From the NCBI GenBank assembly GCA_944332815.1, contig CALVKQ010000001.1, forward strand, positions 49,697 to 113,696: DNA of 64,000 nucleotides. The letters are read 5' to 3'. Within the stretch, counting starts at the first letter, position 1. Every line of letters begins with the position of its first letter. The notes under the pieces are model-generated. The model searched no databases, was not told the DNA's origin, and saw nothing but the letters and a program-made list of their open reading frames with translations. Both the position numbers and the translations under genes were made by a program. The DNA comes from an uncultured Clostridia bacterium (GTDB lineage Bacteria > Bacillota > Clostridia > Christensenellales > CAG-917). Below are positions 7,442 to 20,577 of this stretch, one piece after another.

Positions 7442-8533
7442 ATGCCCCCCGTTTCACTGATGATAAAACCGGCGTCGTCGCTGTGCAATATGCGGTGCAA
7501 GTACTGTTTTTATCATTCCCTCGCCGAGCAGCGCGAGTCGGCTTCCCACGGCATGATGAGTGAAGCCACCCTGCGCCGCACGCTGGAACAGGCTTTCGCG
7601 TACGCGGACGGGAAACCCGTCGCCATCTCCTTTCAGGGCGGCGAGCCCCTGCTCGCAGGCAAGGAATTCTTCGCCGCCGCGGAAAGCATGCTGCGCAAAC
7701 TTGACCGAAAGCACTCTCCCGTCAGTGTGGGCGTGCAGACCAACGGCACTCTGCTGGACGAGGAATGGTGCAGGATGTTCCGCTCCTTCGGCTGGCTGGT
7801 GGGGCTGTCGCTGGACGGCGACCGCGCCGCGAACGCGCTGCGCGTGGACGCCGACGGAGAACCCACTTTCGACAGGGTTTACGCCGCCGCAAAGCTGCTG
7901 GAAAAGAACAGGACGGAGTTCAACGTCCTCTCCGTGCTCACCCGTCGCAACGCGGAAAACATAGGGCGGATATACGCCTTTTTCAGGCGCAACAAATTCC
8001 GCCACCTGCAATTCATCCCCGTGCTGCTCCCCCTTCGCCGAGATGGAGAAACGCGGGCTCCCGAAGAGGAGGACCTCCGCCTCACCCCGGATAGCTATGC
8101 GACCTTCCTCAAAAAGGCGTTCTCCCTTTACATGAAGGACATGATAGACGGCAGATACACGTCCATAAGGCAGTTCGACAACTTCGTCGCCCTCGCCAAC
8201 TTCGGCCGTGCGGAACAGTGCGGTATGAACGGGAGCTGCTCACGGCAGTTCGTGGTGGAGGGGGACGGAGCCGTCTACCCCTGCGACTTCTTCTGCCTGG
8301 ACGAGTACTGCATGGGCAACGTCAACGACAGCACCTTTGCCGCACTGGAAGACTCCCCTGCCGCCGTACGTTTCCGCGAAGAGTCCGCCCTCCGTCCCGA
8401 AAAATGCGAGAGCTGCAAGTACCTCCGCATGTGCGGCGGAGGTTGCAGGCGCGAGCGCGCGGACGTGGACAAATGCGAGGCGTACGCCGAATTTTTCGAT
8501 TACGCCCTGCCCAACATGAAGCGCATGCGCTGA
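7442..8533 (+). CDS. Radical SAM/SPASM protein, anaerobic sulfatase-maturase-like
   Basis: N-terminal CxxxCxxC (CNMRCKYC) and a C-terminal Cys-rich SPASM region (CGMNGSC, CDFFC, CESCKYLRMCGGGC). GGGAGG SD. Confidence 0.8.
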   Translation: MPPVSLMIKPASSLCNMRCKYCFYHSLAEQRESASHGMMSEATLRRTLEQAFAYADGKPVAISFQGGEPLLAGKEFFAAAESMLRKLDRKHSPVSVGVQTNGTLLDEEWCRMFRSFGWLVGLSLDGDRAANALRVDADGEPTFDRVYAAAKLLEKNRTEFNVLSVLTRRNAENIGRIYAFFRRNKFRHLQFIPVLLPLRRDGETRAPEEEDLRLTPDSYATFLKKAFSLYMKDMIDGRYTSIRQFDNFVALANFGRAEQCGMNGSCSRQFVVEGDGAVYPCDFFCLDEYCMGNVNDSTFAALEDSPAAVRFREESALRPEKCESCKYLRMCGGGCRRERADVDKCEAYAEFFDYALPNMKRMR

Positions 8534-8607
8534 CCGCGCCGCCGCTTCTTCCCGCCTCGGACGGCGTGCCCGTCCGCAAAACCGAACAAGTACCGCAAGA
8601 GGTAAAA

Positions 8608-9567
8608 ATGAAATTGATCATCCCAAAAGGTTTCACCGTCGGCGCCGCCCAGAATGAGTTCACGGGCGTTACCGTCCTGCTCGCCCCCAAGGGCGCGACG
8701 GGCGGTGCGGACTGCCGCGGCGGCGCGCCGGGCACTCGCGAAACCGACCTGCTCCGCCCCGAAAAAATGATGGACAAGGTGAACGCCGTGGTGCTTTCCG
8801 GCGGCTCCGCCTACGGGCTGGCGTCCATGACGGGGGTCACGGAATGGCTGTCCCAAAACGGCTTCGGCTACAAGTCCATGGGCAAACTCGTCCCCATCGT
8901 TACGGGCGCGGTGCTGTATGACCTCAACCAAAAAGAATTGCACTATCCCGACGCAAAAATGGGGTTTGAAGCGTGCGAAAACGCATCTGAAACCCCGTTT
9001 ACGGGTCAATACGGCGCAGGACGCGGCGCGACCGTCGGCAAGATAAGAGGCATGAAATACGCCTCTCGCTCGGGGGTCGGAGCCTACACCGTCAAGGTCG
9101 CCGGCGTGACCGTGACCGCCGTCATCGCCGTCAATGCGCTGGGCGACGTGTTCGACCCCGAACAGGGCAAGATAGTGGCAGGAGCCAAAGCGAACGACGG
9201 CAGCTTCCTCGACACGGAGCGCCACATCGTGAACGGCGGACTGATGAAGCTCTTCCTGGGCACCAACACCACCATTGGGTGCATCCTCACCGACGCGAAG
9301 CTGGACAAAGTGGCGGCAAACAAATTGGCGTCCGCATCCCACGACGGGCTGGCGCGCGCCATACGCCCCGTGCACACCGACTTTGACGGCGACACCATGT
9401 TCTGTCTGGCGTCGGGTCACCGTCCCGTCCTCAACCTGCTGCTCTTGCAGACCGCCGCGGCGTACGCCGCAGAGCGCGCCTGCGTGAACGCGGTGCAGGG
9501 CGTGAAGGACCTGACGGTCATATACGACGAAACGGACGAAGAAACGGACACGTGGCAGTGCGACTGA
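8608..9567 (+). CDS. P1/S58 (DmpA-type) family peptidase
   Basis: GFTVGAAQN...GVTVLL...GGAPGTRETDLL...VVLSGGSAYGL matches the DmpA/S58 pattern. The longer track ORF (8218) overlaps the previous gene and is rejected. Confidence 0.75.
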   Translation: MKLIIPKGFTVGAAQNEFTGVTVLLAPKGATGGADCRGGAPGTRETDLLRPEKMMDKVNAVVLSGGSAYGLASMTGVTEWLSQNGFGYKSMGKLVPIVTGAVLYDLNQKELHYPDAKMGFEACENASETPFTGQYGAGRGATVGKIRGMKYASRSGVGAYTVKVAGVTVTAVIAVNALGDVFDPEQGKIVAGAKANDGSFLDTERHIVNGGLMKLFLGTNTTIGCILTDAKLDKVAANKLASASHDGLARAIRPVHTDFDGDTMFCLASGHRPVLNLLLLQTAAAYAAERACVNAVQGVKDLTVIYDETDEETDTWQCD

Positions 9568-9635
9568 CCGCGTCCGAACGCGGCTTCTTCGCCGCAGTGC
9601 GCGGATGTCCGCCGACAACACGTAAAGGACTTGCG

Positions 9636-10247
9636 ATGGAGATAGCGATAATACTCAATTCCGGCGTGCCCGTCACGAGGGAGATCACCGCCGACAAAGT
9701 CATCTGCACTGACGGAGGGCTGCTGCTCTCACCCGTGCGCCCCGACTATCTTGTGGGCGACCTGGACTCGCTCGCTTCCCCACCCGAGGACATCCCCCTG
9801 CTCAGGCACGACTCGCACAAGAATTTCACGGACGGGGAATCCGCCGTGCGCTTTGCCGCGGAACTCGGCGCGGATCTGGTCACACTTTACGGCGTGACGG
9901 GAGGCAGATGCGACCACTTCCTCGGCAACCTGGCGACCATGGCGCTTGCGATGGAACTCGGGATGAAAGTGCGTTCTCTCAACACGGACGCGGAGATATA
10001 CGGCGTGTCGGCTGAACTCTGCCCCGACTTCCGCATCCCTCTGACAGTCGGAGAAACCTTTTCGCTGATACCTCACGGCGGCGAGGCGACGGTCACGCGC
10101 GCTCGCGGCGTCGAATACCCTTTGGAGGAACTCACCCTGACTCCTACGGACACGCGCGGAGTGTCCAACCGCGCCGTTGCGGAAGAGGTGTCCTTCACCG
10201 TGACGAAAGGTATGGTGTTCTTCATCCGCGACATCTATTTCAGGTGA
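9636..10247 (+). CDS. thiN: Thiamine pyrophosphokinase
   Basis: GDLDS and GGRCDH motifs, about 200 aa, next to a thiamine transporter gene. Confidence 0.8.
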   Translation: MEIAIILNSGVPVTREITADKVICTDGGLLLSPVRPDYLVGDLDSLASPPEDIPLLRHDSHKNFTDGESAVRFAAELGADLVTLYGVTGGRCDHFLGNLATMALAMELGMKVRSLNTDAEIYGVSAELCPDFRIPLTVGETFSLIPHGGEATVTRARGVEYPLEELTLTPTDTRGVSNRAVAEEVSFTVTKGMVFFIRDIYFR

Positions 10248-10302
10248 TGTAAGAGCGAAAGCGCAAAGCGGATAACACAAAAAACGGATGACATCAAACA
10301 AA

Positions 10303-10333
10303 CGGAGAGAGCGGCTGAATGCCGCTCTCTCCG
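10303..10333 (-). terminator. Intrinsic terminator downstream of thiT
   Basis: Perfect 13-bp stem CGGAGAGAGCGGC/GCCGCTCTCTCCG, followed on the minus strand by T-rich sequence. Confidence 0.55.
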
Positions 10334-10437
10334 CAAAAGGAAGGCGTTTGCCTAACGAAGACTTGCCGTATGAGGGAGGGGACGGGAGGGAGAGGCGCGC
10401 ATCGCGCGGCGCTCCAGTCAGCCATGAAAAAGACAGA

Positions 10438-11598
10438 TCAGGCCTGCTTGCCGTCCTGTCCGTCGCCGAAGCCGATGTCGTCTGCGTCCTTCTCGTCCTC
10501 GATGTCATATTCCGCCACGCCCGTCGTCGGCTGGACGGCGATGTCCATCTGCCTGCGGAAGGCACGGGAGAGCAGGAGCAGGACGCCTGCCGCAAGGTCT
10601 ATGGCGAGGTCCACCACGGTGAAGGAGTTGTACGCCAAAGAGTAGTAGAAGAACTGATCCGCACCGTAGCCCCCTTCTATGGCATACGCGCCGAACGCGA
10701 ACGTGCCGGAGAGGAGGTGGCACAGATAACGCAGCACCACGGCGACGGTCGCGCCCACGACGAATGCCGCTATCTTATTCTTCTTGATGGGCGTGCGCTC
10801 GAAGAATAAGCCGCTTGCCGCGATCATACCGAATGCGAGCGGATAGTCCAGCATGAACTGCACGGGGTGGATGATATAGGTGTCTTGAAGCGCTTGCAGG
10901 AAGCCGTAAATGAGGCAGACCATCACGCCCCTGCGAGTGCCGAACATCGCGCAGTAGATCATGAGGGGCAGGAGGCTTGCGAACGTCACGCTGCCGCCCT
11001 GGGGCAGATCCACGAGTTTAACGTAAGAGAGCGCAAAGGACATGGCGATGGCGATCGCGCCGTAGACCACGGACTTGGTTTCGTTGACTTCCCTCTTCTT
11101 GCCCACAAAGTAGATGGCGATGAGCGCGACCAGCATTGCCACGAAGGAAATGATGAGCGCGGTGTCGTTCATGTAGGGGGAATAATCCGTATCGCCCGAG
11201 ATATTCTCTTTGAAGTAATCCGCCAACACCACCATGAGCGCTATGAGTCCGCCCAACAATCCCAGCCCGGTGATGACTGTCGCCACCTTGGTGAGGAACT
11301 TGTTGAACACGGACGCAAGCCCCATAAGGCAGCCGCCGCATAGCGCGATGAGCACGAGCGCGAGTATCGCCGGGAAGTAAGGCATGAAAGAGTCATCCGC
11401 CTCCATCTCGTAGAACGTCGCTGCCGCGAGCAGCGCGGCGGCGGTCAGGGCGACCCCGAGCAGGGTGCCTATCGCCACTTTGGAAAAATCTTTGAGCTTT
11501 TCTCTGCGGAACTTATACAGCAGCAGCGCAACGATGCCGAACGCCGCTATGAGAGCCACGACCGTATAAAGCAACGCAAAGGCCAGTTCTTCCGTCAT
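10438..11598 (-). CDS. thiT: ThiT-type (ECF S-component) thiamine transporter with an N-terminal multi-TM extension
   Basis: The C-terminal ~190 aa (LPQGGSVTFASLLPLMIY...TRRG...) resemble ThiT. A TPP riboswitch lies directly upstream. The first ~170 aa are additional TM helices. Confidence 0.75.
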   Translation of the reverse strand: MTEELAFALLYTVVALIAAFGIVALLLYKFRREKLKDFSKVAIGTLLGVALTAAALLAAATFYEMEADDSFMPYFPAILALVLIALCGGCLMGLASVFNKFLTKVATVITGLGLLGGLIALMVVLADYFKENISGDTDYSPYMNDTALIISFVAMLVALIAIYFVGKKREVNETKSVVYGAIAIAMSFALSYVKLVDLPQGGSVTFASLLPLMIYCAMFGTRRGVMVCLIYGFLQALQDTYIIHPVQFMLDYPLAFGMIAASGLFFERTPIKKNKIAAFVVGATVAVVLRYLCHLLSGTFAFGAYAIEGGYGADQFFYYSLAYNSFTVVDLAIDLAAGVLLLLSRAFRRQMDIAVQPTTGVAEYDIEDEKDADDIGFGDGQDGKQA

Positions 11599-12793: not shown

Positions 12794-14188
12794 ATGACAG
12801 ACACTCAGACAGCCGACGGCGGTGTTATAAAACCGCGGAAGCGCAAACTGAACCGGAAACCGTCCACCATGCAGATACTTGTGCTTGGTTACCTTGCCAT
12901 TATCCTGCTGGGGACGTTTTTCCTTTGTCTGCCCATCTCCGCGAAAAACGGAGGATGGACGGCTTTTATCGACTCTCTGCTCGTCGCCACCTCCGCCACC
13001 TGCGTGACGGGGCTCATCACGGTGGACACCTTCCTGCACTGGACGACGTTCGGGCAGGTGGTCATCATCCTGCTCATACAGATAGGCGGACTCGGGTTCA
13101 TGACATTCGTCACCCTCTTCTCTCTCGCGCTCGGCAGACGCATAGGGCTGTTCGAACGCGGACTCATCGCACAGTCCGCAGGCGCATTCGGAAAGGGCGG
13201 CATACTGCGCCTCATAAAACGCATCCTCATCTTCACCTTTTCGGTGGAGCTTCTGGGCGCGTGCATACTTATGACGCGCTTCGTGCCTGAATTCGGCGGA
13301 CAGGGGGTGTGGTTTGCCTTCTTCCACTCCATCTCGGCATTCTGCAACGCAGGCTTCGACCTCATGGGCGTGAAAGGCACGGAGTTCGCCTCCCTCACCT
13401 CATACAGCGACGACTGGGTGGTCAACCTCACCATCTGCGCCCTCATCCTGGTGGGCGGCATGGGCTACGTGGTGTGGAGCGACATCTGGGACAAACGCTT
13501 CCGTTACAGGCAGTACCGCCTGCACACGCGCATAGTGCTGTGGTCGGCGGTCATACTCGTCTTCCTCCCTGCCCTGCTCATCTTCGCTTTCGAACAAGGC
13601 GGCAGCGTGCTGGAAGGCAAAGGTCCTGCGGAAAGTTTCCTCATCTGCCTCTTCCAGGCGGTCACCCCGAGGACGGCAGGGTTCAACACCGTGCCGATAG
13701 CCGAGCTCTCCGACAGCAGCATACTGCTCATCCAGATCCTGATGTTCATAGGCGGAAACAGCGGTTCCACCGCAGGCGGCGTGAAGGTCACCACCATGGT
13801 GGTCATCCTCTTCGGGCTGTACTCCTCCGTGCGCGGACACAAGGATATAGTGATAGGCAAACGCTCGCTGGACCTTTCGCTTGCCAAACAGGCGATGTCG
13901 CTGTTCACCATCTACCTCATCTTCGTGCTGACGGCGACCCTCATCATCTGCGCGGTGGAACCTCAGAACATCACCCTGCGCGACGTTTCCTTCGAGTGCG
14001 TGTCCGCGATCGCGACCGTCGGTCTGACCACGGGTATCACTCCCCTGCTGCACACCGCGTCCAAGTTCATCATCACTCTGCTGATGTTCTCGGGCAGGCT
14101 GGGCGTGCTCACCCTCGCGTCCGCGATGATGACCTCGAAAGTCCAGCCCCTCACCAAACGCCCGACGGAAAAAATACTGATAGGCTAG
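12794..14188 (+). CDS. TrkH/KtrB family potassium uptake membrane protein
   Basis: Polytopic protein with repeated GF/GG pore-loop motifs (TATCVTGL, FCNAGFD, RTAGFN, ATVGLTTG). Confidence 0.9.
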   Translation: MTDTQTADGGVIKPRKRKLNRKPSTMQILVLGYLAIILLGTFFLCLPISAKNGGWTAFIDSLLVATSATCVTGLITVDTFLHWTTFGQVVIILLIQIGGLGFMTFVTLFSLALGRRIGLFERGLIAQSAGAFGKGGILRLIKRILIFTFSVELLGACILMTRFVPEFGGQGVWFAFFHSISAFCNAGFDLMGVKGTEFASLTSYSDDWVVNLTICALILVGGMGYVVWSDIWDKRFRYRQYRLHTRIVLWSAVILVFLPALLIFAFEQGGSVLEGKGPAESFLICLFQAVTPRTAGFNTVPIAELSDSSILLIQILMFIGGNSGSTAGGVKVTTMVVILFGLYSSVRGHKDIVIGKRSLDLSLAKQAMSLFTIYLIFVLTATLIICAVEPQNITLRDVSFECVSAIATVGLTTGITPLLHTASKFIITLLMFSGRLGVLTLASAMMTSKVQPLTKRPTEKILIG

Positions 14189-14212
14189 CCGCTCCACGGC
14201 AAAGGAGATAAT

Positions 14213-14854
14213 ATGAAATCCATACTCGTCATAGGAATGGGACGCTTCGGCACCTACCTCGCCATGAAACTCACCGAGCTCGGCAATCAGGTCATGATAG
14301 CCGACAAGGACGAGGATAAGATCAACCGCCTCTCCCACCACTTCACCGACGCGATCATAGGCGATTGCAGCCGCGAAGAGGTGCTGGAAGAGATAGGCGT
14401 CAACAACTTTGACATCTGCTTCGTCACCATGGGCGAGAGCTTCCAATCCTCTTTGGAGGTCACTTCCCTTCTCAAAGACATGGGCGCGAAGTACGTCGTG
14501 ACCAAATCGTGCAGCGAGATACAAAGCAAATTCCTGCTGCGTAACGGCGCGGACGAGGTGGTGTATCCCGAGCGCGACCTGGCGTTCAAGACCGCCATCC
14601 GCTTCAACGCGGACAACATCTTCGACTTCATCCAGCTGGGCGCGGACTACGGCGTGTTCGAGATCAAAGTGCCCCACGAATGGGTGGGCAAGAACGTCGT
14701 CGGCGCGAACGTGCGCAAAGAGTACGGGCTCAACGTCCTCGCGGTCAAAAAGAACAACTCCGTGGCGCTTGCCGCCAGCGACTATGTGTTTGAAGACGGC
14801 GACCATGTGATAGTCGCGGGCGCGTTCAAAAACATCGACCGCCTCAAACACTGA
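14213..14854 (+). CDS. TrkA/KtrA family potassium uptake regulatory subunit
   Basis: N-terminal Rossmann motif VIGMGRFG and a C-terminal TrkA_C-like part, directly after trkH. Confidence 0.9.
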   Translation: MKSILVIGMGRFGTYLAMKLTELGNQVMIADKDEDKINRLSHHFTDAIIGDCSREEVLEEIGVNNFDICFVTMGESFQSSLEVTSLLKDMGAKYVVTKSCSEIQSKFLLRNGADEVVYPERDLAFKTAIRFNADNIFDFIQLGADYGVFEIKVPHEWVGKNVVGANVRKEYGLNVLAVKKNNSVALAASDYVFEDGDHVIVAGAFKNIDRLKH

Positions 14855-14877: not shown

Positions 14878-14915
14878 GAAACCACCGGTCGGCCCGGTGG
14901 TTTCGCTTTTTTTTT
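14878..14915 (+). terminator. Intrinsic terminator after the trk operon
   Basis: GAAACCACCGG-tcggc-CCGGTGGTTTC followed by a T9 run. Confidence 0.75.
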
Positions 14916-15127: not shown

Positions 15128-16111
15128 TTATGCGTTTGACACAAAACTATAAGTCTTATGCAATGGCGAATTCTGTCGCACCGTGAATCCGTCGGGCAAT
15201 ATTATGCTGCGGCGGTCGGAATGCGGCATATAACCGTTAAAGTGGAAACTCGCCTTTTTCAAATTGAATTGCTTGTCAATCACATACACTTCGTAGACAT
15301 CTATCATATGAGGCTGATGTGGGTCCGCAACGGAATAGCGCCGCATCGAACCGTAAGGCATACTTGTATTGCATTTTCTCGCCACGATGACTTCGCCGTC
15401 AAGACCGACAAGGCTCGGAATAATCTCCAACGCAGCCCTCGCGTACAAAAACGCATCCTTTGACGGCAAAAATCCCATCGGCTCTTCTGCACAAAAGCCT
15501 CTGCCCGTGTAGTCGGCGGAAGAACACGGCTCGTCATCGAGTTTTGATATCATATATCGGATAAAATCGCAATACGGCATATTTAGATTCAGAGCTTCGG
15601 TGTTGAGCGCCCTCATAAAATAATAGACGCTGCGCGTCGTTTTCCTCATATAAGCATAAACCGTACCGAGCAAAATATTTAACTCGCCGTAATTGTGCAA
15701 CCAGCCCACCCATTCTTCATTCGCCGCAAACGGATAAGCGGGCTTTTTCTTGTTGAGGTCGCTAATCCCGTGACAACAATACAATTCCGCCTTCGCCAGG
15801 TCCTTCTCAAAGCCGAACGAACCGAAAATATAAGCGAAAATCGCCCGCTTATATTCCAAGTATGACATCTCCTCTTCGTCTTTGCAGGGTATCGGAAGCC
15901 TTTCCGCCGTCAGCGTAAACCACGGATTGCGTTCCATCATTATCGCAAAGATATCCTCATCCATCTCCATCCCGCACGGACTTACATACTTTTTCACAGC
16001 CGCTCCTCCCGAACTTTTTTCTTTGTCCATCTCATATTTCTTTCGCAAAAAATTTGTGAACTGCTCAACCTCTTCCGTCAAATCGTAATCTTCCTGCCGT
16101 GATTCTTTCAT
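15128..16111 (-). CDS. Hypothetical protein (327 aa)
   Basis: GGGAGGAG SD before the ATG at 16111. Clean ORF inside the low-GC island. I recognise no family. Confidence 0.6.
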   Translation of the reverse strand: MKESRQEDYDLTEEVEQFTNFLRKKYEMDKEKSSGGAAVKKYVSPCGMEMDEDIFAIMMERNPWFTLTAERLPIPCKDEEEMSYLEYKRAIFAYIFGSFGFEKDLAKAELYCCHGISDLNKKKPAYPFAANEEWVGWLHNYGELNILLGTVYAYMRKTTRSVYYFMRALNTEALNLNMPYCDFIRYMISKLDDEPCSSADYTGRGFCAEEPMGFLPSKDAFLYARAALEIIPSLVGLDGEVIVARKCNTSMPYGSMRRYSVADPHQPHMIDVYEVYVIDKQFNLKKASFHFNGYMPHSDRRSIILPDGFTVRQNSPLHKTYSFVSNA

Positions 16112-16273
16112 TTTTTCTCCTCCCGTTTTTTCGTGCACCTTAAAACGTCGCATTTTCCATGCAACAAAAAATCATCCGACCGCCGTCACATCCCCTAACG
16201 CTGCATGATTTAAGATATCTCAAGGATTTCGAGGTCGTATTTTATCTAAAATCCGTCATGCTCAGAATAAAAT

Positions 16274-17038
16274 TCACATCACCTTTATCGTCACGGAACT
16301 CTCATTCACCTCTATGGCAAGTTTTTTGGCACAGCGTGTGCACGTGGTCGTAAATTCCGTCCCCGCCGAGATCTTCCCTATCTTGCTCCCACAACCGGGA
16401 CAATTTATGTAATAAAATGTCTGCCACTTCGGACCCGGCTTCGGAGCAGGCGCCGGAGCAGGCGTCGGAGCGGGCGTCGGAGCAGGCTTCGGAACGGGCT
16501 TCGGTAGGTCGGGTGTCGAAACGATCTTCAGATAGCCCTGCTCAAAGCATTGCGGCGATTGAAAGACTTTGACGCCTTCTTCACCTTCGAACCGTACACA
16601 TGCGCGCCCGTCGATGATGCTCTTCAAAATGCCGATCCCGTATTTTTCATGCCTGACTATACTCCCGACGGGCGGCTCCTTCGGCTTCGGAGGCTCCGGG
16701 ATGACGGGCGATCCGACTATCCTGTCACACCATGCACATATTTTATCTTCGTAAGTGTCCGCGTCCCGCCGCTCCCACTGACTGCACATATAGTATCGTC
16801 CGGCAAGATACCAAGTGACCCAATATCGTGCATAACCCGACGCATCGTAAACATCTTCCAAGTCGTCGACAAGCAGTGGGTATGCGATGTCGAACTTCCT
16901 TTTGCTGTAATCTTTATCATGCAACAGCTTGATAATGTCCGGCGTCAAATAGCCTTTGTTATACAACCACGAAAAAAGTCTTTTCACCCAATCCTGGGTT
17001 TTCTCTCCGCTTCGCTTTGTCGGATAGATCCTGTCCAT
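16274..17038 (-). CDS. Hypothetical protein: N-terminal domain, Pro-rich linkers, Tudor/DUF3553-like segment and C-terminal zinc ribbon
   Basis: AAGGAG SD. PEPPKPKEPP and PKPVPKPAPTPAPTPAPAPAPKP linkers. VRHEKYGIGIL...VRFEG resembles a small beta-barrel module. C-terminal CPGC...CTRC. Confidence 0.6.
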   Translation of the reverse strand: MDRIYPTKRSGEKTQDWVKRLFSWLYNKGYLTPDIIKLLHDKDYSKRKFDIAYPLLVDDLEDVYDASGYARYWVTWYLAGRYYMCSQWERRDADTYEDKICAWCDRIVGSPVIPEPPKPKEPPVGSIVRHEKYGIGILKSIIDGRACVRFEGEEGVKVFQSPQCFEQGYLKIVSTPDLPKPVPKPAPTPAPTPAPAPAPKPGPKWQTFYYINCPGCGSKIGKISAGTEFTTTCTRCAKKLAIEVNESSVTIKVM

Positions 17039-17279
17039 ATTATTACTCCTTGTTTTACATTTGTTTTATAAGCTTCGATTCATTCATTTATCTTTCGCGC
17101 AGGATCCGGCGATGGAGCTGCGTCTTTGTTTGATGTGCTGTTTTATTAGATCTGTCACGCGGGATATCCGCTTTGACGGCGATCGCGCTGTTTGCCGCTG
17201 CCTTTGGTGACTTTCACAAGGTTTGACCTGTCGTTCCGATGAGGGCTGCATAAATTGTTCGGCGCCCTCGAAGATCCCG

Positions 17280-17921
17280 TCACTTTTCGTCCGTTTCGAG
17301 AGAGGATTTCCAGTCCGAGCCTATGTCGGAGATGCCTATACGTGCCGAATACACCACATCGTTCAATACCCTACTGTACATTTTTCTGACGCCGCTGTGA
17401 CTGGGGGTAAAATTCGCTGCATGAGAGGCGCATATCCCGAGTTTTCCGGCTTCGGAAACGGCGTCCATATTTGCGCCGAGGAAAATAAACTGCCATGAGT
17501 ATTTCTCCTGCTGATGTGCAATCATCTCCCGCACTTTCTGCAAGCTGTAACTCATGCTTGAATTCTCCTCCCCGTCCGTCGTAATCACGAAAATGACGTG
17601 TTCGGGGCGTTCCTCTTCCGGGGTATTGCTCAGACGTACTCCCAAATTGTCTATCGTCCGTCCGACCGCGTCGAGAAGTGCCGTACCTCCGCGGGCAGAA
17701 TAGTCATCTTTCGTCAGCGGCTTAACCTCATCAAGGGCGACGTGCTCGTGCAGCACCTGATAACTTGTATCGAACAGAACTGTCGTGATATATGCCTCAC
17801 CCTCGATTTTTCTTTGTTTTTCGATAAATTCGTTGAACCCTCCTATTGTGTCCTCTTCAAGCGGTTTCATAGAGCCGCTGCGGTCCAGTACAAAGACCAT
17901 CTCCGTCAGATTTTTTTTCAT
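17280..17921 (-). CDS. von Willebrand factor type A (vWA) domain protein
   Basis: MIDAS motif DRSGSM near the N-terminus, later T and D(G) positions (GGTALLDA, ITTDGEEN), about 210 aa. Confidence 0.8.
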   Translation of the reverse strand: MKKNLTEMVFVLDRSGSMKPLEEDTIGGFNEFIEKQRKIEGEAYITTVLFDTSYQVLHEHVALDEVKPLTKDDYSARGGTALLDAVGRTIDNLGVRLSNTPEEERPEHVIFVITTDGEENSSMSYSLQKVREMIAHQQEKYSWQFIFLGANMDAVSEAGKLGICASHAANFTPSHSGVRKMYSRVLNDVVYSARIGISDIGSDWKSSLETDEK

Positions 17922-17968: not shown

Positions 17969-18340
17969 TTAATTTTCTTCAAAGCGGTATATTCTGGTGA
18001 GAATCGGCAGCAGGCGCTCTGCCAAATCAACCCGCTTTTCGGATGACAATTCGCAGACCGTGTCTCCGCGGATTGCCCCGAGAATAAAGGCTATCTCCTC
18101 CGTCCCGAACTTTTTCCCTCCGAGATAACATCCCTTTTTTGTCTTTACTATCGGATATCCCATCTCGATGAGCGCTTCGATATTGCGTCCGACAGTCTTC
18201 CTGTCGCACGGCATCACGTCGTTAAGCCATTCGGCTATCTCCGTCTGCGTCATCGGGTGATTCCGGTCCGTATTCGATTCCAGAATCTTCAAAACGTACA
18301 GAATCAGATATTTTTTGCGGCTCAAAATCTTGTCCTCCAT
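17969..18340 (-). CDS. Winged-HTH transcriptional regulator (WYL-regulator-type N-terminal domain, no WYL domain)
   Basis: YLILYVLKILESNTDRNHPMTQTEIAEWL...DRKTVGRNIEAL matches the HTH_11-type N-terminus of WYL regulators. Only 123 aa from the internal ATG at 18340. Confidence 0.65.
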   Translation of the reverse strand: MEDKILSRKKYLILYVLKILESNTDRNHPMTQTEIAEWLNDVMPCDRKTVGRNIEALIEMGYPIVKTKKGCYLGGKKFGTEEIAFILGAIRGDTVCELSSEKRVDLAERLLPILTRIYRFEEN

Positions 18341-18414
18341 TTTAATTATAACAATGTGCTTGTACCAAAAATCGCCCACAATGTTTTTTTGCGAAAAATT
18401 AATTTCCGGACAGC

Positions 18415-18498
18415 CATATGCCGTTTGATTTATATTAATTTTCGCCGGATGAATTTTCGGCATTCTTTTCATATGCCGTTTGATATGTATTAATTTCG
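18415..18498. repeat. Two ~30-bp direct repeats in the divergent regulator intergenic region
   Basis: CATATGCCGTTTGATTTATATTAATTTTCG (18415-18444) and CATATGCCGTTTGATATGTATTAATTTCG (18470-18498), starts 55 bp apart. Confidence 0.7.
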
Positions 18499-18590
18499 AG
18501 CATACACGTTTATATGGCTGCGAGCAACCATATAAAAAGTATAATACTGTTACTGTTGCACATAACCATTCCAAAGGGGAGTGCGCAGCC

Positions 18591-18834
18591 GTGAACACCA
18601 TAAATAAAGCGCTCAAATTGCGCATCGAAGAACTGCTGAAAGAAAAAAAATATGACGAGATACCGACCGGCGATGAACAGCGGCATAACGCATTCTACCC
18701 TGAAAAACATTCTTCACGAAACAGTTTCGGACAGTCTGTTGTCAACAGTGATACTCATAGCCTCTGGTTTCAATATGACAGTGAGTGAATTTCTCGACAG
18801 TCCGTTGTTTTGCGAAGACAAGCCGGACATATAA
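18591..18834 (+). pseudogene. XRE-family HTH regulator interrupted by a frameshift in an A8 tract
   Basis: GTG start with an AAGGGGAG SD. Helix 1 (LRIEELLKEKK) is in one frame. The rest of the HTH (MTRYRPAMNSGITHSTLKNI...FNMTVSEFLD) is in the +1 frame, switching at A8 (18642-18649). Confidence 0.55.
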
Positions 18835-18939: not shown

Positions 18940-20577
18940 TTACAAAAACTTTTCCTCTTCCGTGTCGTAAAGCCCCGTGTCCAGCAGCCGCAGACGGGGT
19001 ATGACGGGGAGCGCAACGAATGAGAGAGTGGTGAACGCGTCCACGCCGGGATCCACCCCCATGGCGTGCGCGATGCGCTCCAACTCCTCCGTCCTTTTTG
19101 CCACTTCCTCCGCGCTGCCCGTCGCCATGAGCCCGAACGCAGGCATGGGGAGTTCCCCCACCGTCCTGCCGCCCGACGCGATGACGTAACCGCCGCCTAT
19201 CTCTTGCAGTCTTTTTAGGGCGAACGCCATATCCGCGGCATTGTCGCCTGCGCATACGGCGTTGTGCGAATCGTGAGATATAGAAGTGGCGATCGCGCCG
19301 CCCCTCATACCGTAGCCCACCAGCTTACACACGGCGAAATTCCCGTTCCGCCCATGCCTTTCCGCCGTCACGAGCAGGTCGCACGGCTCGCCTTTCCCGA
19401 CCTTTGTTTTCTCGGTGATTATCTGCCCTTGCACCAAAGAGAGCGCGACCCCGTCCAAGCGTCCGGGCACGGCTATATCCTCTGCGGATATCGTGTTGAG
19501 ATGCACAGAATTTTCAAAAACGGCATGTTTATCTTCATGTTCCGATGGTTTAACCGTGAGTTTTCCGTTTTTCGCCACGACGACGCCGTCCTTCAAAACG
19601 CAGACTACTTCCCCCGTATCCTCCTTGGCAACAACTATATCGGCGCGCAGTCCCTCCCCTATGTTCCCCCTGTCCGGCAAGCCGTAAAAGCGGCAGGGAG
19701 AATAGGAGGACATCCTTGCGACATCTCCCCATCCGAAGCCCTTTCGGAGGGCGAGGGAGACTATGTGCGAGATGTGTCCTTCGCGCGCTATGGTGGCAAG
19801 ATGCTTGTCGTCCGTACAGAAAGCGAAACGCCCCGTGTCCAGTCCCCTTTCCTTCACGCCGTCCAACAACTCGGAAGCGTTGCGCGCCGCGCTCCCTTCG
19901 CGGATATAGATGTTCATGCCCCTGTCGTAGCGCGCGAACATCTCTTCCTTGGTCGCGCACTCATGGTCGTTGCAAACGCCTGCGGCGACATAGGCGTCCA
20001 ACATACTTTCGGGCATACCGGCGGTGTGCCCGTCCACCGTCCTGCCGCAAAAGAGTGCGAGTTTTGCCGCCATGCGAGGCTCTCCGTGCGCCGCGTCGGC
20101 AAATCTCATCACCTCGCCCAGTCCCACCACCATGGGATCGTCCGCGAACTCTTTCATGTCATCCGCAGAGAACTCGCCCGCGCCGTTGGTGTCCAGCTCC
20201 GTGGCAGGCACGCTTGACGGCAGGCATATAAATATGTCCGCGCGCGAACGGCGGCACTCCTCCATGAAGACGCGCAGCCCGGGCGCGCCTGCGACATTGA
20301 CGACTTCGTGAGGGTCGGCGATGACGGTCGTGGTGCCGAAAGGCAGCACCGCGTCCCCGAACGCCGCAGGCAGCACCATGCCCGACTCTATGTGCACGTG
20401 AGCGTCCGCGAACCCTGCCGCGATCACCTTCCCCGTGCAGTCCAAGACCTCGTCCGCGCTTTCGTAGCCGCATCCGCCCACTCGCGCGATGCGCCCGTCC
20501 TCTACAAGCACGTCCGCAGAAAAAAGCACGGCACGTCTGCCGTCGGCGACCCTGCCGCCTTTTAAGAGCACTCTCAT
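18940..20577 (-). CDS. ade: Adenine deaminase
   Basis: 545 aa amidohydrolase-fold protein with GFADAHVHIESG and the two-domain length typical of Ade. Confidence 0.8.
   Translation of the reverse strand: MRVLLKGGRVADGRRAVLFSADVLVEDGRIARVGGCGYESADEVLDCTGKVIAAGFADAHVHIESGMVLPAAFGDAVLPFGTTTVIADPHEVVNVAGAPGLRVFMEECRRSRADIFICLPSSVPATELDTNGAGEFSADDMKEFADDPMVVGLGEVMRFADAAHGEPRMAAKLALFCGRTVDGHTAGMPESMLDAYVAAGVCNDHECATKEEMFARYDRGMNIYIREGSAARNASELLDGVKERGLDTGRFAFCTDDKHLATIAREGHISHIVSLALRKGFGWGDVARMSSYSPCRFYGLPDRGNIGEGLRADIVVAKEDTGEVVCVLKDGVVVAKNGKLTVKPSEHEDKHAVFENSVHLNTISAEDIAVPGRLDGVALSLVQGQIITEKTKVGKGEPCDLLVTAERHGRNGNFAVCKLVGYGMRGGAIATSISHDSHNAVCAGDNAADMAFALKRLQEIGGGYVIASGGRTVGELPMPAFGLMATGSAEEVAKRTEELERIAHAMGVDPGVDAFTTLSFVALPVIPRLRLLDTGLYDTEEEKFL

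Follow-up and report, generated by a model that had tools for sequence, protein, structure and literature searches.

A polymorphic gene island with an exchangeable slot between trkA and adeC in uncultured Clostridia, a candidate conflict system

Introduction

The TerY-P triad, composed of the vWA protein TerY, a PP2C phosphatase and a Ser/Thr kinase, was reportedly validated as a defense system by Gao and co-workers in 2020. In this work we analyzed a gene island of ~3.9 kb that also includes a vWA gene and is located in a 64,000-nucleotide stretch of DNA from an uncultured Clostridia bacterium (GenBank assembly GCA_944332815.1, contig CALVKQ010000001.1, positions 49,697 to 113,696), which is called the window at its full length. 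The island lies between trkA and adeC and consists of four co-directional genes on the minus strand, which code for a winged helix-turn-helix (wHTH) regulator, a vWA protein and two proteins designated P2 and P3, and of a divergent gene of the XRE family. Its most likely identity, with a probability of about 0.5, is an undescribed conflict system, i.e., an anti-phage or anti-plasmid defense. The presence/absence polymorphism, the deeply divergent alleles, the horizontal exchange and the low G+C content make it a candidate defense system, and so do the pairing of constant genes and an exchangeable module, a hypervariable surface patch, a nuclease allele and the company kept by the N-terminal domain of P2, designated domain X.

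The TerY-P triad, discussed in PMC11090510, shares with the island a compact vWA protein of ~210 amino acids with a metal ion-dependent adhesion site (MIDAS) in a multi-gene predicted conflict locus. However, no kinase or phosphatase gene was found near the vWA gene, whose neighbors are those for the wHTH, P2 and P3, adeC and trkA, and no PADLOC family matched the vWA protein at E ≤ 1. For these two reasons the island is not a TerY-P system; the partners of its vWA protein are the wHTH, P3 and a candidate reader/RNA polymerase-docking protein. Conflict systems of the ternary vWA-MoxR type (Kaur and co-workers, 2020, as cited in PMC12839542) also have a vWA component, variable partners and rapid evolution. 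The island differs in lacking a MoxR AAA+ ATPase or iSTAND protein, and its vWA domain is not fused to a peptidase effector. No ATPase open reading frame (ORF) was found between 14.8 and 19 kb of the window or in any syntenic locus, and therefore the island is not a vWA-MoxR system. An earlier reading of the nucleotide sequence on its own (the sequence-only reading) had noted that the usual vWA partners were absent, and indeed none is nearby. Its proposal of a conflict system found strong population-genetic support, but the vWA protein is not a component of the TerY-P or MoxR type.

The hallmarks of conflict systems were compared with those in PMC9503650, where vWA domains are Mg2+-dependent peptide-binding components and GreA/B domains are part of predicted conflict systems. 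The predicted vWA-containing and TPR-GreA/B systems of that work resemble the island, as interpreted below, in their overall logic: a conserved core under negative regulation is combined with effector or sensor modules that can be exchanged, and vWA has the part of an adaptor. Other points of likeness are the combination of a GreA/B domain with a TPR-like protein and the location of vWA homologues near macro-domain genes in two plasmids. In contrast, neither P3 nor domain X belongs to the systems predicted there, and the window codes for no ADP-ribose enzyme, be it ARG, Nudix, PIN or another.

Regulators of the wHTH-WYL family, of the BrxR/CapW/PafBC type, control defense islands. The regulator described here is a small protein that may share their N-terminal wHTH, as its matches to the N-terminus of WYL proteins are weak, and it is encoded upstream of a variable operon with repeats in its promoter. 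It differs from them in that its 118 amino acids include no WYL sensor domain (none was matched, and the protein is too short to hold this ligand-sensing domain), and consequently the island is not a WYL regulator system.

Results and Discussion

Organization of the island

The first gene of the operon codes for the wHTH regulator (17969–18325, minus strand, 118 amino acids) and is directly upstream of the vWA gene (17280–17921, minus strand, 213 amino acids). The genes for P2 (16274–17038, minus strand, 254 amino acids) and P3 (15128–16111, minus strand, 327 amino acids) follow. The sequence-only reading had placed the vWA, P2 and P3 genes on one strand with good Shine-Dalgarno sites. All three are on the minus strand, preceded by the Shine-Dalgarno-like sequences AAGGAAA (vWA), AAGGAG (P2) and GGGAGGAG (P3). 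It had overlooked the fourth gene (wHTH), the divergent XRE gene, the low G+C content and the unusual length of the gaps. The G+C content of the island is 48–52%, compared to ~58% for the rest of the window. The gaps in the operon measure 47 (wHTH/vWA), 241 (vWA/P2) and 162 nt (P2/P3), and the two unusually long ones turned out to be recombination junctions. The ratio of nonsynonymous to synonymous divergence (dN/dS) was 0.11–0.34 for the four operon genes in seven pairwise comparisons (0.11–0.17 for the vWA gene), which is indicative of purifying selection. The wHTH, vWA, P2 and P3 genes are therefore real genes.

Searches of the four proteins against Pfam, NCBIfam, PADLOC and PHROGs produced only sub-threshold matches, with the exception of phrog_7371 for the vWA protein, and no PADLOC family matched the vWA, P2 or P3 proteins. 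No description of this gene set was found in the literature searched. The view that the combination is undescribed was thus borne out, as no library holds it.

Variation within the species

Around 60 related loci, numbered with the prefix L, were gathered through homologues of P3, vWA and TrkA and through domain X, and were annotated by tblastn and custom hidden Markov models. All related island sequences are metagenomic, with no isolate known. A look-up of the exact TrkA protein of the window identified ten distinct neighborhoods from the same species, in which AdeC is 95–100% identical. Four of these ten contigs have no island, and trkA is directly next to adeC at a distance of 156–230 nt. 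The other six carry at least four island haplotypes. These are characterized by the 254-amino acid P2 found in the window, a 241-amino acid P2 (36% identity, accompanied by a P3 with 50% identity), a 182-amino acid X-Tudor protein, a deletion of P2, or a 379-amino acid protein that combines transmembrane (TM) helices with the Mrr_cat and GreA_GreB domains. The last protein (L062, 9027–10166, minus strand) has two TM helices, Mrr_cat (E 1e-26) and the C-terminal domain of GreA/GreB (51.8 bits; cut-off, 26.9). Its nuclease is similar to the nucleases of the PADLOC models PDC-S02, ZorD and mREase_IV.

The synonymous divergence (dS) of the flanks is 0.02–0.10 between strains with identical TrkA, while that of the wHTH and vWA genes reaches 1.6–2.1, and in L063 synonymous divergence has reached saturation in both P2 and P3. 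The opposite was found in L015, which belongs to another species: the flank dS is 0.8–1.2, yet P3 has a dS of only 0.07 to that of the window. The dS of P2 in L011 is 0.11. This mismatch between the island and its backbone indicates that the island is a mosaic exchanged horizontally among related species by recombination.

Comparison by blastn of the window cassette with L065, L015 and L071 showed that homology breaks off at position 1127 of the cassette (17274 of the window) and is regained at position 2183 (16218 of the window). These breakpoints are common to several genome comparisons and delimit an exchangeable slot (16218–17273, minus strand), which holds P2 in the window. The P2 position is, then, a swappable slot with fixed junctions. 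The L062 slot gene begins with a 45-nt copy of the P3 start region; its first ~15 codons and its Shine-Dalgarno site duplicate those of P3 with 91% identity. The N-terminus that the two proteins share, MKE(S/P)R(Q/P)EDY(D/G)LTE, was considered as a docking peptide for the MIDAS of the vWA protein. This idea was rejected because the identity over 45 nt of DNA shows that a translation-start region was duplicated in the course of cassette insertion; P3 orthologues in other vWA-containing loci do not start with this peptide.

Conservation of the gene neighborhood

The arrangement wHTH-vWA-P2-P3 between adeC and trkA recurs in several related Christensenellales-type species, in which TrkA is 85–91% and AdeC 65–73% identical to those of the window. 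P2 is absent in L007, L008 and L065. Its position is occupied by the 182-amino acid X-Tudor protein in L014 to L017, L035 and L071, and by a 239–250-amino acid protein with domain X, Tudor domain and zinc ribbon, of ~36% identity, in L001, L002, L009, L063 and L069. A wHTH gene is directly upstream of the P3 homologues of L004 to L006, L021 to L026, L028 and L047. In L023 and L024, at another genome position, the order is wHTH-P3-vWA. In L004 to L006 the pair wHTH-P3 is followed by a protein in which HSDR_N_2/PD-(D/E)xK, a PPPP stretch and domain X are joined, in L022 by a zinc ribbon-X protein, and in L028, beside serine recombinases, by a Tudor-Pro-SRA protein with a Tudor domain homologous to that of P2. 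An X protein precedes wHTH-P3 in L047, and small proteins of no recognized identity follow the pair in L021 and L025. The vWA gene is absent from several P3 loci. Because the other partners differ among the loci outside the trkA-adeC position, the constant core is the pair wHTH plus P3; vWA and X/Tudor proteins are recurrent, not obligatory. The sequence-only reading had raised the possibility of a conserved unit of the vWA, P2 and P3 genes and had suggested a survey of their co-occurrence. The genes do travel together, with the trio order in several related genomes and the wHTH gene at its head, but P2 is dispensable or replaceable and vWA is sometimes missing.

If these genes were unrelated neighbors in a permissive intergenic hotspot, forming no functional unit, one would understand the long gaps, the absence of each component from some locus and the fact that vWA is usually solo elsewhere. 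We consider this very unlikely. Although P3 has only about 100 known homologues, at least six unrelated genome positions combine it with a wHTH of the same family, vWA accompanies it in two gene orders, and four architectures link it to X-domain proteins. In addition, no terminator-like site was found in the gaps between the four operon genes.

The constant pair could also be a toxin-antitoxin or addiction module. P3 or the slot protein would be the toxin, and the wHTH would serve both as antitoxin and as autorepressor, in the manner of AbiE-type pairs. The vWA and P2 genes would be later passengers, and the variability would reflect selfish spread. In loci with no vWA or P2, the gap between wHTH and P3 is only 3–18 nt (L004, 7997/8001; L021, 5108/5123; L023, 5990/6001; L025, 2110/2129). 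The small regulator is first in the operon, repeats are present in the promoter, and one P3 locus is beside a Phd-Fic pair and another beside recombinases. Nevertheless, in the window lineage two genes (640 and 765 nt) and gaps of 241 and 162 nt come between the supposed antitoxin and toxin, a spacing seldom seen in stoichiometric pairs, and P3 has no similarity to any toxin family. We find this alternative unlikely; it also overlaps with the defense interpretation, many validated defense systems being toxin-antitoxin-like.

P2 and domain X

P2 is composed of domain X (residues ~10–110; 16709–17011, minus strand), a Pro-rich linker (residues 111–123), a Tudor-like barrel of the UvrD/PcrA type (residues ~125–175; 16514–16666, minus strand), a second Pro/Ala/Thr linker (residues 175–204) and a C-terminal zinc ribbon with the motif CPGC...CTRC (16274–16423, minus strand). 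The unrecognized N-terminal domain, the two Pro-rich linkers and the CxxC...CxxC ribbon that had been read from the sequence were all found, with no library model covering the first. The second linker is encoded by a 12-nt tandem repeat (16427–16504, minus strand; 6.5 copies by Tandem Repeats Finder), and changes in its copy number are the main reason why P2 alleles vary between 233 and 266 amino acids. The AlphaFold2 model (mean pLDDT 90.3) shows three folded units joined by the two proline linkers, with a pLDDT above 90 for the ribbon. Pfam zinc-ribbon models match the ribbon weakly. The CPGC motif is invariant, and the second CxxC (CT[RHL]C, CARC in one case) is kept in all full-length alleles. 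Comparison of P2 with PDB sequences yielded low-complexity matches only, and the other P2 alleles matched either no PADLOC family or, marginally, DpdF (E 9e-4).

The best Foldseek matches of the barrel are the C-terminal Tudor domains of PcrA/UvrD (5dma, 7egt_B, 6yi2 and 7egs_B), with a probability of 1.00, target-normalized TM-scores of 0.70–0.75 and root-mean-square deviations of 1.9–2.2 Å. The E-values (0.02–0.07 for 5dma, 7egt_B and 7egs_B) are no better because the domain has only ~50 residues, over which the identity is 24–30%. This domain of UvrD/PcrA binds the RNA polymerase beta lobe and UvrB (5dma, 7egs, 7egt, 6yi2), and several of the matched entries are complexes with one or the other. 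The difference is that the Tudor domain of P2 is not on a helicase, and its binding to RNA polymerase is a prediction. The barrel, which includes the sequence VRHEKYGIGIL, had been called Tudor/DUF3553-like; the first half of that assignment stands, but DUF3553 remains below its gathering threshold (E 0.17, 11.9 bits with a cut-off of 20.3).

When the full P2 was used as query, the search for homologues was swamped by proline-rich words and found close relatives only, and residues 1–115 were used instead. A search of domain X against 1.84 billion cluster representatives/proteins gave 250 cluster representatives at E ≤ 1e-3. The domain is predicted to consist of three helices, a β-hairpin and a long helix, with the signature RYW...YYxCSQW, and no Pfam, NCBIfam or PADLOC model covers it in the 99 of the 250 proteins that were scanned. 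Domain X is usually C-terminal, behind effector domains of the defense type. In 35 of the 99 scanned proteins it is fused to an HSDR_N_2 or PD-(D/E)xK nuclease, and some of these nuclease-X proteins match PADLOC mREase_II models. Its other partners are HEPN_Swt1, SIR2, TIR, Fic, HNH, Mrr, McrB and ADP-ribosylglycohydrolase, as well as LmuA-, ThsA-, Dsr- and Avs5-like modules. Outside the loci described here, the majority of genes for X-domain proteins are solitary. As far as these fusions indicate, this is the company of a sensor or targeting domain of single-protein defense genes. A profile search of PDB sequences found nothing for domain X, as did tblastn against plasmid and phage collections and a scan of IMG/VR.

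Among 28 distinct close P2 alleles (mostly >83% identical, with two at 70–73%) the Tudor domain and the zinc ribbon are nearly invariant. The variation is found in the hairpin and helix start of domain X (residues 69, 74, 77 and 89–92). Residues 89–92 (16762–16773), immediately after the invariant CSQW, read ERRD, WLQN, WLQI, QSRF, RLPD, QKRD or ELSK. The window allele has Glu in place of a nearly invariant second Trp, which is present in 98 of the 136 representatives in which the motif was found.

Type IV (modification-dependent) restriction systems (Mrr, ScoMcrA, MspJI-like) combine a nuclease with a DNA reader, and the island resembles them in several respects: X most often follows HSDR_N_2/PD-(D/E)xK, Mrr_cat is present in the slot allele of L062 and PD-(D/E)xK in L004 to L006, and an SRA domain is found in the neighbor of P3 in L028. 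By analogy with this Tudor-SRA protein, domain X may be a reader of modified DNA. In contrast to those systems, the candidate reader of the window has a Tudor domain and a zinc ribbon as its fusion partners, and its gene shares the operon with those for vWA, P3 and a regulator. No nuclease domain was found by library scans of P2 or the rest of the operon in the window, and so this allele is not a restriction enzyme.

The slot proteins thus join a domain directed to nucleic acids (X, SRA, Mrr or PD-(D/E)xK) to a domain of an RNA polymerase-docking type (UvrD/PcrA Tudor or the C-terminal domain of GreA/B). The occurrence of two unrelated types of such docking domains in one slot is the strongest mechanistic element of our proposal and suggests that immune sensors or nucleases may be carried to foreign DNA by RNA polymerase. 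The same features would fit an accessory transcription-coupled module for DNA surveillance or regulation outside conflict, in which P2-type proteins bound to RNA polymerase read a modification or lesion while vWA and P3 assist repair or gene regulation. In its favor, the Tudor domain is that of UvrD/PcrA, which acts in transcription-coupled repair, the GreA/B domain occupies the same slot, the Tudor domain is also found in fusion with an SRA reader and the chromosomal position is stable across species. But if the role were one of repair or housekeeping, one would not expect sites to be empty in some strains of a species, alleles to diverge deeply and pass between species, one allele to code for a nuclease, or domain X to have a hypervariable patch. 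Moreover, the other partners of domain X are defense or toxin effectors. We judge this explanation improbable.

The vWA protein

The MIDAS of the vWA protein is complete (DRSGS ... G-T ... TDGxEN; DRSGS, G-T-A and TDGEEN in the window), so that at sequence level it has the DxSxS ... T ... D residues that define the superfamily. As the sequence-only reading had it, the site is intact, and the residues are kept in every intact homologue examined, including copies from phages and plasmids. Pfam models VWA, VWA_3, VWA_CoxE and VWA_2 align over the whole domain below their cut-offs (17.9 versus 23.8 bits), PF10138 (vWA-TerF-like) gives faint or weak matches on the orthologues, and a search of PDB sequences found nothing. 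The best match was phrog_7371 (E 5e-54). The family is very large, with at least 8000 homologues, and its members are typically solo genes of ~212 amino acids; 217 phage records carry one. Another copy is in the cargo region of a mobilizable element, beside a methylase, ClbS and MobC/relaxase.

These locations raise the alternative that the island was left behind by a mobile element or carried as its cargo, and that its role is in counter-defense or otherwise benefits the element; the vWA protein, for example, could neutralize a host or competitor system. The low G+C content and a TM-fused relative of P3 on one IMG/VR contig, the only one retrieved with P3, could be explained in the same way. 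However, no integrase, replication or structural gene was found in or near the island, a search for att-like repeats or a tRNA at its borders identified none, P3 had no tblastn match in the plasmid collection, and domain X had none in plasmids, phages or IMG/VR. This origin seems quite improbable to us.

Homologues of the vWA protein (48–50% identity) are located near macro-domain genes for O-acetyl-ADP-ribose deacetylase in a Peptoclostridium plasmid (L018, 3877–5654) and in Selenomonas pSRC2 (L019, 2354–5657). In pSRC2, genes for Nudix, nucleoside 2-deoxyribosyltransferase and DUF262 proteins are also nearby. These neighbors hint at a tie of the vWA family to ADP-ribose biology. In L003 (6499–7130) the vWA gene is split into two frames in an otherwise intact island and is likely a pseudogene. 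The metagenome sample ERZ16268164 yielded both this island and one with no P2 (L065).

P3

P3 is translated from an ATG preceded by the Shine-Dalgarno-like site given above. Gene callers and all homologues use the resulting 327 amino acids, and a 341-amino acid ORF from an upstream ATG is also present. The search for homologues found 103, all from metagenomic Clostridia, one source specifying a Christensenellales bacterium. The AlphaFold2 model (pLDDT 84.5, pTM 0.83) has a helical, possibly Sel1/TPR-like N-terminal half and a β-rich C-terminal half with no detectable relative. The latter includes the invariant residues G203, G205, G213, R258, S260 and D271 and the nearly invariant E274, D279 and K285.

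P3 had been described as matching nothing recognizable, and it has no match in Pfam, NCBIfam, PADLOC, PHROGs or PDB sequences, the last also by profile. A structure search had been proposed for the three proteins. With P2 it identified the Tudor domain, but for P3 it gave no fold match at E ≤ 1e-3 in PDB or BFVD. With the N-terminal half Foldseek gave weak matches to TPR, Fis1 and Sel1 structures (probability 0.35–0.77, E >0.1), and one homologue matches TPR_1 weakly (E 0.06); with the C-terminal domain nothing was found in PDB or BFVD.

Some P3 proteins form a subfamily that has two TM helices at the N-terminus and a different partner, a small protein of 143–147 amino acids with the motif APYYKFCG (L025, 3423–3854; L027, 441–2453; L072, 4845–5288 and 5710–6966). 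In L027 this protein is part of a 670-amino acid fusion. On the IMG/VR viral contig, one such pair immediately follows the gene for a TM/Sel1 protein, and a sigma-70-type factor is encoded a few genes upstream. In L010 a P3 homologue (7923–8858, plus strand) with no detectable wHTH is convergent to an HSDR_N_2 nuclease-like protein (9436–10557, minus strand), in which a Pro-rich linker is present and domain X is replaced at the C-terminus by another domain of no recognized class.

The regulators and the promoter region

The wHTH protein has 118 amino acids when started at the TTG at 18325, which follows GGAGGA and is the start used by gene callers, and 123 amino acids from the ATG at 18340. 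It has weak matches to Pfam HTH_11 (E 1.1e-3), to positions 7–84 of a PADLOC WYL model (E 1.2e-3) and to BirA/NiaR-type wHTH domains in PDB, and tblastn found the N-terminus of a WYL protein (E 1e-4). The divergent XRE-family gene (18591–18834, plus strand) is present as ORFs in two frames. In the window, as in L064, whose sequence is identical, a +1 frameshift occurs in a run of eight A residues (18643–18650). The island allele of L065, with 98% identity, has seven A residues and an intact 80-amino acid product; an intact orthologue of the same size is present in L011, and the intact copy matches Pfam HTH_26. The frameshift may be genuine, as an inactivating or phase-variable mutation, or the two sequences may share an assembly error.

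The region between the divergent genes includes an operator-like pair of 27-nt direct repeats (18415–18441 and 18470–18496), 55 nt apart. Its 15-nt core occurs twice in the window, compared to 0.08 occurrences expected by chance. The pair AAATTAATATACATCAAACGG(C/T)ATA, with copies 64 nt apart, is found upstream of the wHTH gene in L001, L007, L009 and L015, so that the repeats (25–27 nt) are conserved even though the wHTH and vWA proteins of these loci are only ~70–77% identical to those of the window. A 13-nt inverted repeat, TTTATATGGCTGC/GCAACCATATAAA (18509–18536), is located upstream of the XRE gene, next to its start. This palindrome is a possible second operator. An extended -10-like element, TGTTATAAT (18347–18355), is ~20 nt upstream of the wHTH start codon and would leave a very short leader holding only the Shine-Dalgarno site. 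A simple promoter scan gave a site at 18339–18368 that overlaps this element.

Surroundings of the island

The genes trkH and trkA (12794–14854, plus strand) are convergent to the cassette, and adeC (18940–20577, minus strand) is on the other side. A bidirectional intrinsic terminator (14878–14904) closes the operon and is common to the cassette and the convergent trkA. Its hairpin is also kept at the empty sites. An Rfam search of the region from 14 to 20 kb found no match.

A tentative mechanism

If the island is a conflict system, the wHTH, perhaps with the divergent XRE protein, would bind the conserved direct repeats and hold expression of the operon low. P2 would be the sensor, positioned on RNA polymerase through its Tudor domain, and the fast-evolving domain X would read a feature of the invading DNA or a protein of the invader. 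The vWA protein would act as an adaptor and hold on, through its MIDAS, to an acidic peptide in P2, P3 or a target. P3 would be the output, with the Sel1/TPR-like half as a scaffold and the conserved C-terminal domain carrying the activity, and a Mrr nuclease in the slot would add to or replace this effector. We infer the whole of this mechanism from the features described above. Its most specific form, an immunity that patrols transcription by means of an exchangeable sensor or effector tethered to RNA polymerase through a UvrD-type Tudor or GreA/B C-terminal domain, with X as a reader in parallel to SRA, vWA as adaptor, P3 as an executor of new fold and the wHTH as repressor, is possible, if doubtful.

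Several observations weigh against the island being a defense system or against parts of this mechanism. The neighborhood is of the housekeeping kind (trkAH, mscL, adeC, TetR) and not a defense island, and no PADLOC defense model was matched by the window proteins except for the weak match of the wHTH. The same chromosomal position is occupied in species with TrkA proteins 9–15% apart, a longer retention than is usual for mobile defense genes. The vWA family, mostly solo and abundant in phages and in the cargo of mobile elements, would fit a counter-defense or unrelated role as well, and the XRE gene is frameshifted in the window strain. The window allele has no recognizable catalytic effector, and the output role of P3, purely inferred, is the weakest element of the proposal, as neither sequence nor fold points to an activity. 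The predicted docking of P2 on RNA polymerase comes from fold and family alone, and in the fold search of the whole P2 all of the top 50 places were taken by Tudor matches, leaving no room for any of domain X.

Implications

If the island is a defense system, P3 would be a new anchor protein family with no detectable relatives, and domain X would be a new sensor-type domain that occurs with a wide range of defense effectors and is absent from Pfam, NCBIfam and PADLOC. Immune sensors and nucleases could then reach foreign DNA by riding RNA polymerase. With ~250 cluster representatives, domain X deserves the definition of a family even if defense is not its function. The island is also a clean natural single-locus slot with fixed junctions, in which one gut species has several deeply divergent alleles and an empty state. 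The system is therefore directly testable by allele swapping.

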